DNA of 48,891 nucleotides, counting the filler, from Basidiobolus ranarum (lineage: Eukaryota): the NCBI GenBank assembly GCA_040143965.1. It is 2 parts of 2 records of this genome, joined end to end, with 100 filler letters (N's around TTAATTAATTAA, not from the genome) between each part and the next. Parts side by side here need not be neighbours in the genome. Positions count along the whole stretch, not along the records: positions 1 to 24,425 come from JASJQH010007029.1; 1 more part is not named here. One strand, 5' to 3'. The translations under genes and the position numbers were made by a program. Of the stretch, positions 3,321-24,525 are shown piece by piece. Each line of letters begins with the position of its first letter. Position 1 is the first letter of the stretch. The notes under the pieces are model-generated. The model was given only the letters and a program-made list of their open reading frames with translations. It did no database searches and was not told where the DNA came from.

Positions 3321-4721
3321 TTAAGAGCGATTAGGCTCGGGAAGGATCTTGTTCTCCGGATGGGATGCGTACTCAGTCCATGCACCATCATAAAGTGCCA
3401 ACTTTTTAGCACCAGCAATCTCTAATGCCAAGTAGATTACCGCAGCGCTGACTCCACTTCCTATGATAGAATCGAGAGTGTTTGTTGGTGCGAGCTTGTT
3501 GATTTCATAGAGATTCAGAATAAATACCACAAGAAGTAACAATATTTCGATTGACATCGACGCCGTTATCCTTAAAGAGTTTGACCAACTCTTGTGGAGA
3601 CTTCATTACTTTAGTGTCTTGATGAACCACATCGGCGAATGGGATACTAAGAGAATGTGGAATATGTCCACTAGGAAGGCCTGCACGTGGCTCGGGGTCC
3701 ACTCCACTGAATCTAATCAGAGTTGTCAAGTTTGATTTATGATTTGTATATTAAGTTACAAAAACTGACCTCCCCTTCGGGCGAGCATCGATTACTAGCT
3801 CGCCATCAGGTCCATCCGCCTTCTTGATATTTTGGATGATTTGATCCATGCTACGAACCAACTGAGGTTGGAATTTGGCATTGTAAAGTTTGGGCTAATT
3901 TCCGCTTATTGAATAAACTTATACAACAAACATGGAATAAGTGCACATAAATCAGATTACCTTAGTGGCGGCTTGTCCTCCCTCCACTGGTCGTTCTTCT
4001 TGAAGCCATTTAGGTAAACCACCATCCAAAACAGCAACCCTTTCATGTCCAAAAACCTTGTAATAGCTACGCATTAATAAAACCATTCTACAGTAGTAAT
4101 CAAGTTCCACATACCTTAAATGTCCAGTAAACTCTAGGCGCAGAGAATATTCCATTGGTGTCATAAACAATAACCTTATCGTTTTCCGAAATCCCTAGCT
4201 CACCTAAATATTTTCAATAAGAATAAGGAAAAGAGGGGAAAGAAAAGGATATTTTTGGGAATTAAATACATACCAACAGATTGAGCAAAAACCTCAGAAC
4301 TTGGTAACATATGAGGAAGTTTGCTGGAGGTGTCACTAATTCCATCAATATCAAAAAAGCGAGCACCCTAATGACAAGTTTACCATTAATATTACTTTCA
4401 TATATCTGTGGGAAGGGAGAACAATAACCTTTATGTGCGAATTCAGATATTCCTGTTTAGGATTGCGCTTGGTTTGAGGCATATGCCAGGAACCATCGAG
4501 GACAATCACCTCGTCTTTATTGTCAGCCAACCACTGTGTAGATACAAGCTTCATATCTTCAAATTCACTTAGTTTAGAAAAATCAGCACTCAAGTTTAAA
4601 AATACTCACCCAGTTTTGGTGTGGTAGAATAGGCTTTATGCAGCGATGGTACTAAAATGGAGCGTGCGGCAAATAAAATCGGCCTAGAGCTTTGAATGCC
4701 ACTGAATAAGATGGAAGTCAT
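3321..4721 (-). CDS. TUM1: Thiosulfate/3-mercaptopyruvate sulfurtransferase (tandem rhodanese), 8 exons, N-terminal mitochondrial-type presequence
   Basis: Spliced pieces give LVSTQWL...LDGSWHMP, FGHERVAVLDGGLPKW, EPRAGLPSGHIP, catalytic loop TSCGSGVSA and YDGAWTEY. Seven GT-AG introns keep the frame. ATG at 4721 (MTSILFSGIQSSRPILFAARS). Confidence 0.92.
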
Positions 4722-13515: not shown

Positions 13516-14682
13516 ATGGAGGATAACGGATTCACACTTTTCAAGTACAATTCTCGAAAGAATCAGAATCGACGTAAACGTCGCACAGATATCAAACAAG
13601 TATCTGCAGACAGCGTTATAGAACTGGTGGAAGATAGGGTGTAAGTGTACTTAAAACTCGACCATTCTCTCCAATTCTCGGTTGTTTCTAACGCTTTCAA
13701 AAGAGATACTTTAAAACATAGCGAATTTTATTCGCAACTAAAAGGTGACCCTTGAAGAAACTGTTTATTTCTCTGTAGTAGTTGGTTGAAACTAACATGG
13801 TGTTTTCTTAGAAATCATTGAAACTTGTCACATTTCAAACTTGGAAGATATTATTTGTTATGGTGTGGGGTCTTTCGAACAATCACGTACCTCCCAATTT
13901 CAACTTGGATTAGTGTTATTACTTCGGGAATCACTTAAAGTATGCAATTACTCTTCCATTTTCTTCGCCATTTAAGCAAATTCTAAACAGAATATAATAG
14001 ATCAAGGGTAAAATGTACAGTTATGATCCAGTGTTAACAAAAATCGACCTAGAGGTGCTTCAACATTACGATATCGAACTGATTAAAGTCAATGAGGTAA
14101 TTACTTGATTTACTCGTTTGTCTACTTCGTCAAAAGCTCAATGGAATTTCTTACACTTTATAGCAAGCGAAACGCAAAGTCACCGCGCTCACACTGTTCT
14201 ACATGCCACATTGTGGAAAAACACTATACAATAATGTATTGGCGTCCAATTGGTCACGTGAAGACATCAAGAATGTTTTACTCGTTGGAAATCGACTAGA
14301 GATGTATCATGAAAAGTTGGTTTCTATTTCAAGGCGATGGTTACTTCCATTATATTACAAAACTAACCAGATTTTCGAAATTCATTAGTGAACCCACATC
14401 AAAGTTACGCCGTGAAGTTCCGCATATCTTGGAGATATCCTTTTTATAATGGATTCACTTGTTCATATTACCAATATCCCCATTCTTATCTTTAACCTGA
14501 CTTCTTTTCACGCTCTTGACTTGATCAAATGCTCACCGTTTCCCGAAGAATTCGATACCAACACGATCTTTAACGATACCTGTCTTCATCAATTTCTACC
14601 TGAGAAGGTCGAAGCAGCGGAAGACAGTGTATTTGAGGTGGAAGCAGTCGCTGAGCCTGAGAATGACCCAGAGCTGATATGA
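13516..14682 (+). CDS. SRR1-domain protein (SRRD/Ber1-like), 7 exons, last intron AT-AC
   Basis: Spliced motifs IICYGVGSF, SQFQLGL, YDPVLTKID, TLFYMPHCGKTLYNNVL..NW, LLVGN and IFNDTCLHQF. Confidence 0.88.
14435..14511 (+). other. U12-type (minor spliceosome) AT-AC intron, 77 nt
   Basis: 5' end ATATCCTTT, branch TCTTTAAC ~16 nt before the 3' end TTCAC. Removal joins ...HILE|ALDLIKC in frame. Retention gives an immediate TAA. Confidence 0.85.
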
Positions 14683-16989: not shown

Positions 16990-18685
16990 ATGAACTCTCA
17001 TAATCGTTTGGCTGTACGCCAGGTATGTAGCTTGACCTGCCTCTTTTACTCCAGTGTCTCTAATGTGATCCTTTCTCCCCTAGTTCTGGCAGGAGAATCG
17101 GAGCCGCTTCCTGGTAGATTGGGTGGTCACACCTATCACCATCGTTATCATATTAGCATATGTTTGGTGTATGAACCAGCTGATTAAGCTCACGCCCATT
17201 GACTTTCCTGCTAGTGTAAGTACCCGGACAGATATACATTCTAACCGTGCCGAAGCTGACTCAAGTTTCTGTTTGTAGGTGGCATGCATGATTCTAACAT
17301 TCATACTTCTACTAATATGCAATCTGATCACCGCTCGCTATACCCAAATGTTCATCAATACATTTTCTCCGGCGGTGGACTTCTTACTGAAATGGATTAA
17401 CGTTCTCTTTTGTCCAGCTTTCATTCTAATCCCCAATAGCAAGTCCATCTCATCGAAAGAGTTTGGTATGGTGTTCGGAGTATTTGGTAAGTAATGGAGT
17501 GTTTCTTATCCAAAGGAAATAGATTTACTTAACAATTACTTTCTAGCAATTGGTCTATTGATCTCAACCATTGCAACTGCTTTGACCGTCAACGCATTTA
17601 AAAAATTGAAAACAATCATCTTTAAAAAGCCCCAGGCTTCAACTGAAGTGGAGTCTGGAGATCTCGAGAAGGCCAGTGCAATTGACCTACCAGAAGAGGA
17701 TGACTCCACATTAAATGAAAGAGAAAGGAACCCCAAAGAAACCTCGCCACCGGCAAACGATAAATCTATGAACAAGCTGAGTGAATTATCTGAGTTGAAT
17801 GAAAGTGGAAGCAAACTCAAGAAATTCCTGGGAGATTATGCCAATCCTATGATTTATTTCACCGCGTTTGTCCCTTCGTTTATAGTGTATTTGGTGACGG
17901 ATCAAGAATTACCAGTTCAGTTAACCTTGAACGTACTAAGTTTTTATGCTGCTTTGGCAGTGCCAGCAAGGATCCGAAGATTCCTTCACCCTATTATTAC
18001 CTGTTCTGGACTCATGATTTTCTTCATTTATATCCTTGGATTGATGAAGGGTCTCACTTTGACCCATGGCTTAGATACCTTCTCAACAGGTACACGTTAC
18101 CTAGTTCTACTTGACCCTACACGTACAGAATCAGTTCCTCAACCTGGGGCTGGAGACGTGCTTTATTCGTTACTTGAAGGCAGTATCGTATCCCTGTCAT
18201 TTAACATGTTCAAATACCGTAGAGAACTTCGGGATCATGCCTTCGAGATGATTCCTACCATTGGAATTATTAGTTGCGCTTCCTTATTTTTATATCCACT
18301 TATTGCGGGAGCCATGAATCTCCCAACCAATGTTGCACTTCCATTTGCTGTCCGAGGAATTACCACACCACTTGCCATTAATATTGAAACGGTACTTGGT
18401 GGTGATGTTAATACCACGGTGATTATGGTGATTGTCACGGGAATTCTTGGTGCAGTCGGTGGTCAATGGTTTTTAAGAAAATTGGGATTTAGTGAGGATG
18501 ATTATATCACCATCGGTGTTACATTGGGTTGTAACGCAAATGCAGTCTCTACCGCCGCTTTGTTAGAATCCAATTTAAAAGCCGCTGCCATAGCTTCTTT
18601 GAGTTTCGTACTGTTTGGAACCATTCCAATTATATTGGTCGCCATACCATCTATCACCAATGTTATCAGGGGATTCGCCACTTGA
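16990..18685 (+). CDS. LrgA/LrgB (CidA/CidB)-like fused multi-pass transporter, 4 exons
   Basis: N-half FPASVACMIL...FLLKWINVLFCPAFILIP is LrgA-like. C-half FAVRGITTPLAI, VTGILGAVGG, IGVTLGCNANAVSTAAL is LrgB-like. GT-AG introns link the ATG at 16990 to the 17558-18685 ORF. Confidence 0.85.
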
Positions 18686-22251: not shown

Positions 22252-23298
22252 TTAAATACTCACTGCATGGGGTATAGACGGGTAATTTAGAGGATCAGGG
22301 TAATCAAGAGCATCAGGATAGCCAAGTGACTCTGGGTAACTTGGTGGATTATCTTCATGTATGGCTTCGTACTCAGGTAGCAATTCAATCTCTACAGGTG
22401 CAACAGCATTGTGGGTAACCCTGTTGTTGATTTTTCGCACAATGCATATAGGCAATCTAGCTTTTATATGCCTGATTCGACCATCCAATTCAACGGTAAT
22501 TTTGGTCTGGAGTTGATGTGAGACTTCTACATAGGAAGAAGTCGAATCGAAATGAACATTCTTGTAGGATCTATCTATTCCAAGTGAAAGAGTGCTGGAT
22601 ACTGCGTCTCTGGATATATTCTTGAGAAGAGTACTCACAAATCTATTGATGCAGCAATTGACTCCAGCAGGATAGTCTCCCGGATCTTTATAAGTTGTAA
22701 TCTCATATACACCTGCCCAGACACTGATTAACTTACAGCTGCCACCTCGAACGTTGTGCTTGAATGTGATAGGAATGGTGTCGCTGGGAATATACTCGTG
22801 TTTAGGGATAATTATCTCATAATCAACCATATCCTTCCAGGTGTTTTCAATATGAGTGTTGCACACTGCAGACATCATTGCGCCAATATCTTGGTGAATA
22901 TACACCTCTCGATCAGTTTTTAAATTGGAGGCAAACAGTGGTGTCTCTACCATCGCTTTTAAATGGTATTGAATCGATGCATAGTCTACATACAGTGAAT
23001 CCGGAAGATCAGCAGGAAGTGCAAGTTCAAAATCATAAACATATTCTCCAGCGCAGAATAACTTGAGGTTCTGATGAAAATCCCATTTGTGGTCAATGAG
23101 GGTCGTAATGCAGCTTTGGATTCGTCCCTTCCTCATTACAAGCGAACCTTTGAAACAAAGGTTAATATTCTGCACCTTAATAGGCGTAGATGGAGTGAAA
23201 ATGAGCTTTCCCCTCAAAATAAATGGGGACTGATTATCATCAAAGATACTCTTGAACATAACATCTCTTTCAAGTTCGATTGATAACTTCGGACTCAT
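22252..23298 (-). CDS. Alpha-arrestin (ART-like) adaptor, copy 1
   Basis: Arrestin-N motifs LRGKLIF, GEYVYDFELALPADLPDS and IQYHLKAMV, arrestin-C-like EVSHQLQ, PY-type motifs LPEY and PPSY. ATG at 23298. Confidence 0.85.
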   Translation of the reverse strand: MSPKLSIELERDVMFKSIFDDNQSPFILRGKLIFTPSTPIKVQNINLCFKGSLVMRKGRIQSCITTLIDHKWDFHQNLKLFCAGEYVYDFELALPADLPDSLYVDYASIQYHLKAMVETPLFASNLKTDREVYIHQDIGAMMSAVCNTHIENTWKDMVDYEIIIPKHEYIPSDTIPITFKHNVRGGSCKLISVWAGVYEITTYKDPGDYPAGVNCCINRFVSTLLKNISRDAVSSTLSLGIDRSYKNVHFDSTSSYVEVSHQLQTKITVELDGRIRHIKARLPICIVRKINNRVTHNAVAPVEIELLPEYEAIHEDNPPSYPESLGYPDALDYPDPLNYPSIPHAVSI

Positions 23299-23801: not shown

Positions 23802-24425
23802 TTAAATACTCACTGCATAGGGTATAGACGGGTAGTTTAGAGGATCAGGGTAATCAAGAGCATCGGGATAGCCAAGAGACTCTGGGTAACTTGGTGGATT
23901 ATCTTCATGTATGGCTTCGTACTCAGGTAGCAATTCAATCTCTACAGGTGCAACAGCATTGTGGGTAACACTGCTGCTGATTCTTCGCACAATGCATATA
24001 GGCAATCTAGCTTTTATATGCCTGATTCGACCATCCAATTCAACGGTAATTTTGGTCTGGAGTTGATGTGAGACTTTTACATAGGGAGAAATCGAATCGA
24101 AATGAACATTCTTGTAGGATCTATCTATTCCGAGTGAAAGAGTGCTGGATACTGCGCCTCTGGATATATTCTTGTGAAGAGTACTCACAAATCTATTGAT
24201 GCAGCAATTGACCCCAGTAGGATTATCCTCCGGATCTCTATACGTTGTACTCTCACATACACCTACCCAAATACTGATTAGCTTACAACGGCCACCTCGA
24301 ACGTTATGCTTGAATGTGATAGGAATGGTGTCGCTGGGAATATACTCGTGTTTAGGGATAATTATCTCATAATCAACCATATCCTTCCAGGTGTTTTCAA
24401 TATGAGTGTTGCACACTGCAGACAT
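23802..24425 (-). CDS. Alpha-arrestin, tandem copy 2 (5' part lost in the assembly gap)
   Basis: Colinear with the C-terminal 207 aa of copy 1 (19 substitutions counted). The 3' flank ~23690-23801 also matches ~22140-22251. Confidence 0.8.
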   Translation of the reverse strand: MSAVCNTHIENTWKDMVDYEIIIPKHEYIPSDTIPITFKHNVRGGRCKLISIWVGVCESTTYRDPEDNPTGVNCCINRFVSTLHKNISRGAVSSTLSLGIDRSYKNVHFDSISPYVKVSHQLQTKITVELDGRIRHIKARLPICIVRRISSSVTHNAVAPVEIELLPEYEAIHEDNPPSYPESLGYPDALDYPDPLNYPSIPYAVSI

Positions 24426-24525
24426 NNNNNNNNNNNNNNNNNNNNNNNNNNNNNNNNNNNNNNNNNNNNTTAATTAATTAANNNNNNNNNNNNNNNNNNN
24501 NNNNNNNNNNNNNNNNNNNNNNNNN
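24426..24525. other. Assembly gap with artificial TTAATTAATTAA spacer
   Basis: N runs flank a 12-mer that has stop codons in all frames. Confidence 0.95.

Follow-up and report, generated by a model that had tools for sequence, protein, structure and literature searches.

How does an SRR1 gene of the fungus Basidiobolus ranarum pass the in-frame TAA that follows the residues PHILE near its 3' end, and which spliceosome would carry it past? The gene lies in a window of 48,891 nucleotides (the whole stretch of DNA analysed), whose bases 1-24425 are contig C7029 of an assembly of 65.0 Mb in 13,754 contigs. A sequence-only reading had proposed that the stop is removed with a U12-type AT-AC intron at 14435..14511 of an SRR1 gene, and both parts of that proposal stood: coordinates and motifs were exact, with the frame restored to the IFNDT motif, and the spliced protein matched Pfam SRR1 (PF07985) with 162 bits, over the cut-off, at residues 60-222 and profile positions 9-171 of 172, while exon 7 by itself gave no Pfam hit. 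The gene has seven exons and six introns, introns 1-5 being GT-AG introns of 61-73 nt and intron 6 AT-AC. Its features are as follows, with the basis of each in brackets.

13516..13640, + strand: SRR1 exon 1, with the ATG at 13516 (model translation equal to public protein P0001)
13704..13744, + strand: SRR1 exon 2 (seven-exon model)
13812..13939, + strand: SRR1 exon 3 (Pfam SRR1 positions 12-47)
14001..14096, + strand: SRR1 exon 4 (Pfam SRR1 positions 52-80)
14164..14315, + strand: SRR1 exon 5 (Pfam SRR1 positions 81-126)
14316..14388, + strand: intron 5, GT-AG, 73 nt, phase 2 (seven-exon model)
14389..14434, + strand: SRR1 exon 6, 46 nt, last residue E196 (seven-exon model; residues conserved in homologues)
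14435..14511, + strand: intron 6, U12-type AT-AC, 77 nt, phase 0, last intron of the gene (motifs, model, homologue fit)
14435..14445, + strand: U12-type 5' splice site, beginning ATATCCTTTTT (complementary at +4 to +11 to the 5' terminus of the fungus's own U11)
14447..14449, + strand: in-frame TAA, which on retention ends the protein at residue 200 (sequence; ORF 14300-14449)
14486..14496, + strand: branch region (pairs with the fungus's own U12 around a bulged A at 14495)
14509..14511, + strand: 3' splice site CAC (motif, model)
14512..14682, + strand: SRR1 exon 7, which carries H222 and the conserved FND motif and ends in the stop codon 14680-14682 (model, homologues, Pfam)

The donor agrees with the U12 consensus RTATCCTT, and the branch motif TCTTTAAC at 14489-14496 differs from TCCTTRAC by one mismatch. 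Its second A, at 14495, lies 16 nt before the last intron base, and the distance from the motif to the intron end is 15 nt, inside the 10-20 nt of the U12-type pattern. U2-type AT-AC introns carry a U1-type donor consensus after the AT; the donor here, ATATCCTT, is of another kind. Once the intron, with its AT...YAC termini, is taken out, A197 directly follows E196 (phase 0) and the conserved frame, with IFNDT downstream, is restored, whereas the frame read through after PHILE stops at 14447-14449. RTATCCT occurs 12 times in the window, counting both strands, and this site alone matched the full donor-branch-YAC pattern; 10 of the 11 others had no branch-plus-acceptor. We regard 14435-14511 as almost certainly a genuine U12-type AT-AC intron, the last in SRR1, that is removed by the minor spliceosome.

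Use of a further AC at 14536, whose branch is weaker, would lengthen the intron to 102 nt and shift the frame; that AC was not taken as the main site. The RTATCCT site at 18030 has a weak branch and acceptor, outside the spacing that the pattern allows for AC, and a donor-like ATATCCTTTT at 4252 on the − strand, without branch or AC, apparently lies within the 3' end of an ordinary intron. Positions 24426-24525 are an N linker with a short TTAA repeat between two separate contigs, the second piece not being placed in C7029; a repeat of at least 57 nt occurs at 22819-22875 and 24369-24425, the second copy at the contig end.

Translation of the seven-exon model gave 252 aa that equal the public B. 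ranarum protein P0001 letter for letter, and exon 5 used as a protein-search query also returned P0001 (100% identical). Since the public model already splices the AT-AC intron, the mis-modelling by GT-AG-only gene finders that the sequence-only reading had predicted did not occur in B. ranarum.

Minor snRNAs and proteins of B. ranarum

The sequence-only reading had credited this early-diverging fungus with a minor snRNA set, and the genome search it called for recovered U11, U12, U4atac and U6atac, one copy of each. Two of the four score over the Rfam cut-off (U11, 84.6 bits; U6atac, 66.3 bits), and two fall under the cut-off of 53 (U12, 49.4 bits, E 2.9e-7; U4atac, 46.6 bits, E 2.1e-5). An upstream element, TCCCAYA, at about −62 to −67 is common to all four minor snRNA genes and to 4/4 major U6 genes compared, these being the ones with upstream DNA (two more U6 loci came without it); it resembles the plant snRNA upstream element. 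Major U6 gave 25 matches, against the single copy of each minor snRNA.

The 5' end of U11 forms 8 pairs with the SRR1 donor at +4 to +11 (−6.7 kcal/mol). For U12, 10 pairs with the branch, one of them G-U, were read by eye around a bulged A14495; the computed best duplex lies in a register 5 nt upstream of the one read by eye, an effect of the near-tandem repeat that makes up the branch region. Stem II of U4atac pairs with the fungus's own U6atac at −26.3 kcal/mol, a value as low as which came in 0/2000 shuffles, and 12 distinct foreign U6atac segments were all weaker partners (12/12, −15.5 to −24.1 kcal/mol), as was major U6 (−11.7). An earlier shuffle test on a longer U4atac/U6atac segment was weak (−36.7 against a mean of −27.2, sd 3.9, minimum −39.9). 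The sub-threshold U4atac (L004:1501-1629; C640:9904-10032) pairs specifically with its own U6atac, and its 5' helix matches an extra base in the latter. The U12 copy (L002:1501-1648) carries a U in place of the Rfam-consensus A beside the branch-pairing stretch; co-variation of this change with the A before the branch was considered and dropped as too weak, there being A in 14 and T in 16 of 35 donors-with-branch read by eye.

All four protein families searched, which we take to be minor-spliceosome proteins, have matches in the genome: PDCD7 (27 bits, at the cut-off), zf-SCNM1 (44.9), CCDC84/CENATAC (43.4) and zf-U11-48K (33). The exon behind the last match resembles both GTSF1 and U11-48K and hits GTSF1 better. 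CENATAC and U11-59K are named in passages of PMC11347168.

The GUCGA box of U6atac

The only U6atac copy found (L001:1501-1634; C89:21836-21969, + strand) has GUCGA in place of the AAGGA of the Rfam consensus. Facing the SRR1 donor, it forms pairs at +4, +5 and +9 and wobbles at +8 and +10, with mismatches at +6, +7 and +11, and the resulting −0.4 kcal/mol, against −7.1 for a canonical copy, counts against our main reading. Pairing of U6atac with donor positions +6 and +7 has been shown by suppressor genetics in human cells. Donors altered to match the variant box were looked for and set aside: among the 100 listed of 150 rows, inspected by eye, ATATCCTT occurs in 38 and the complementary ATATCGAC in 0.

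That the box is wholly new is ruled out by a U6atac 'CC variant', [GU]CCGA, which passages of PMC2396436 describe in several non-fungal lineages (Trichoplax, cnidarians, sponge, Acanthamoeba, Physarum, moss, oomycetes) and call hard to explain; the two fungi named there, Rhizopus and Phycomyces, have AAGGA. The Basidiobolus copy shares with that variant a C-containing motif in place of AAGGA, poor pairing with an unchanged donor and a preserved U4atac pairing, and it differs in that GUCGA is one base off, with a C opposite +6 as in the variant and a U opposite +7 (PMC2396436, same passages). Judged from these motifs, the Basidiobolus U6atac would work like the CC variant and is not a strict member, since it departs from [GU]CCGA. 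A literature search, outside figures (PMC10639083 Fig. 9E, on the Rhizophagus U6atac) and figshare files, returned neither a fungal case nor a follow-up of the CC variant. In metagenomes AAGGA was present in 43/43 U6atac loci (31 distinct), none assignable to a fungus, in a scan by an exact-match pattern that returned no CC variant and is therefore biased and silent on the box in other fungi.

We consider it somewhat probable that the Basidiobolus minor spliceosome runs on this single GUCGA U6atac, unable to pair with +6/+7 of unchanged ATATCCTT donors, and that it would be the first fungal CC-type case. A canonical AAGGA copy that is missing from the assembly and does the work, or an assembly error behind GUCGA, is an unlikely but serious alternative: the assembly is in 13,754 contigs, and 45 of 2,894 U6atac candidates were scored. 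The 10-mer of the variant box also occurs twice (L001:1414-1423 and 1511-1520), 87 nt upstream of the U6atac copy in the former case, which again lends this alternative some weight. However, the DNA search of the fragmented assembly found no second U6atac, an error is an improbable source of three neighbouring changes in the direction of a known variant, and each species covered in PMC2396436, as far as its passages go, has either the AG or the CC form and never both. An exact look-up of the ORF adjoining U6atac gave no match.

If a single GUCGA U6atac is indeed what this fungus uses, it would represent either one more independent switch or an indication that the CC-type variant is ancestral, and the CC-variant puzzle of 2008 would become testable in an organism that can be cultured and has more than a hundred minor introns. 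Were standard donors spliced with only two U6atac pairs, the helix would not be a universal requirement, and the donor would have to be held by proteins.

Predicted splicing of the SRR1 intron and alternatives to it

In the minor spliceosome, GG6/7 of U11 and GG14/15 of U6atac pair with CC5/6 of the donor, and GA23/24 of U12 with the branch (PMC4980772, in part). The pairings reported here for U11, U12 and U4atac/U6atac are sequence complementarity, and the mechanism is that of established spliceosome biochemistry. On this basis U11 would bind the SRR1 donor at +4 to +11 and U12 would pair with the branch region, leaving A14495 bulged; U4atac would then bring in U6atac, and two transesterifications would join 14434 to 14512. 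The U6atac/donor helix would keep no more than the two Watson-Crick pairs of +4 and +5, and the donor is therefore probably selected by U11 together with proteins, for instance the SCNM1 zinc finger. Retention of the intron would place a stop four codons in and remove residues 197-252, including the conserved FND motif; we infer that full-length SRR1 therefore depends on minor splicing. Because the AT-AC intron is the last, a retained transcript would have no junction downstream of the stop. The minor spliceosome of this fungus is predicted to be functional.

It is very unlikely that the AT-AC sites are spliced by the major spliceosome or a hybrid one, the minor snRNAs being relics and the altered U6atac a decaying gene. 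The three changes in the donor-pairing box of U6atac, the scores of U12 and U4atac under the Rfam cut-off and the 25 major U6 matches would suit such a reading, and hybrid spliceosomes in non-animals are a speculation of PMC11347168 (in the passages concerned). By contrast, the donor is U12-type and not U1-type, and the U6atac gene retains the catalytic GAGA and AGC residues together with an intact upstream element, TATA-like box and T run. Its best pairing is with its own U4atac, for which major U6 is a poor partner, and a similar variant box is known from many lineages (PMC2396436, in part). These U4atac pairing data also argue against U4 borrowing by these fungi in a hybrid spliceosome, as suggested in PMC11347168 (same passages).

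The sequence-only reading had found no GT-AG pair that rescues the frame, but such pairs exist: read in the exon 7 frame the intron contains no stop (ORF 14416-14682), and so, of 3712 GT/GC-AG models with one or two introns, built from exon 5 onward, 473 have an open frame. Examples are an intron at 14316-14417 (16 aa more, with the stretch translated in that frame) and a pair at 14316-14388 and 14412-14548 (20 aa fewer). Enumeration of these models nevertheless led to their rejection for poorer homologue fit, and a coding AT-AC stretch in a gene spliced at GT-AG sites only is exceedingly improbable. Against the B. meristosporus SRR1 protein P0002 the AT-AC model scored 552 and the best of the 473 open models 445. 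A profile of 153 homologues omits P0001 and P0002; it favours the AT-AC model, since P0001 served as query in collecting the homologues and was included in their alignment. This profile gave the AT-AC model 297.9 bits and four GT-AG models 255-266, which is 32-42 bits lower (a fifth contained stops). The GN-to-FND spacing of the AT-AC model, 45 aa, equals the median of the 84 homologues (of 153) with both motifs, while the four GT-AG models have the wrong spacing of 25, 61, 61 and 69. No length change occurs at residues 192-200 in 127/153 homologues, exon 6 residues L187, P192 and I194 are the commonest homologue residues, and the AT-AC junction is used in two public models, being identical in P0001 and P0002. 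In exon 7, F216, N217, D218 and H222 are conserved in 144, 125, 112 and 107 of the 153 homologues, respectively.

Distribution and age of the intron

At the E196/A197 junction, the SRR1 model of Acaulospora morrowiae (P0012) carries a 25-aa insertion. This insertion can be back-translated into a stretch that starts with ATATCCTT, has TCCTTAAC 16 nt from its end and finishes in YAC; donor, branch and YAC all fitted in 0/40,091 background windows from other proteins. These features suggest the same intron at a length of 75 nt, not removed by the annotator. Among Glomeromycota, 6 of 7 named SRR1 models break at or beside the AT-AC site, a count taken on protein models that were picked after viewing the alignment and with names for 14 proteins only. 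The seven are as follows.

P0012: reads as retaining the intron
P0004, P0005, P0040: without exon 6
P0019: diverges after exon 6
P0011: diverges after exon 5
P0006 (Rhizophagus): intact

The six broken models are probably annotation errors caused by the same intron, so the mis-modelling predicted by the sequence-only reading, which fails for B. ranarum, appears to hold in Glomeromycota orthologues, and the SRR1 AT-AC intron flags an annotation trap. Other named fungal models are intact (P0008, P0009, P0010, P0013 and P0030), where loss of the intron and its correct splicing are not distinguishable. Since an AT-AC-like intron lies at the same site in the Acaulospora protein model, the intron is probably older than the split between Zoopagomycota and Glomeromycota.

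Human and mouse SRRD, in the same Pfam family, is what we take to be the SRR1 orthologue. A comparison with animal orthologues had been proposed, and it was answered in part, from minor-intron gene tables: SRRD was missing from all 8 supplementary files of PMC6717393, which did contain the controls NOP2 and DRAP1, and was absent from the mammalian minor-intron tables consulted in PMC6865273, where one of two controls was present. A putative Ensembl id of SRRD gave no match in a weak look-up. Its absence from the PMC6717393 tables, as far as these were seen, indicates that SRRD is apparently not a minor-intron gene in mammals. The SRR1 intron would be a fungus-specific or fungus-retained minor intron. 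Because mammals appear to be without it, it may help to date minor-intron gain or loss.

The minor spliceosome that had been postulated for this fungus is supported, but it was already published for the genus. According to passages of PMC10639083, minor introns number 249 in B. meristosporus, a share (0.554%) above that of any other fungus. Those of PMC11347168 put the number at 237 and rate its U11 and U6atac as high-confidence, its U12 and U4atac as putative; Table S7 there places the U6atac at K493scaffold_519:39962-40096. B. ranarum resembles its congener in intron class and motifs, in strong U11/U6atac and sub-threshold U12/U4atac, and in the SRR1 junction. The main texts of both papers do not name B. 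ranarum, and their passages, figshare per-intron tables aside, do not discuss SRR1. Rhizophagus irregularis, with 205 minor introns, is similar in that its minor introns likewise carry consensus motifs, and some of them sit at positions that fungi share (PMC10639083, in part). The SRR1 intron of B. ranarum differs in its phase 0, the rarest in the trend 1 > 2 > 0 reported in that source, and this counts against it. It is one more member of a published class and ordinary for the genus; the U6atac variant and the Glomeromycota evidence matter more than the SRR1 intron itself.

Across the 65 Mb, the donor-branch-YAC pattern gave 176 matches against 64 for a reversed-pattern control, both counts including repeats and double acceptors, with a control rate of ~0.05 per window. 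A dispersed repeat family with a branch-like motif inflates the pattern counts. Two pairs of AT-AC pattern matches lie on the same strand, 1,018 nt apart in L063 (C80:9093, 10111) and 361 nt apart in L073 (C209:11190, 11551), and may possibly represent genes with two minor introns.
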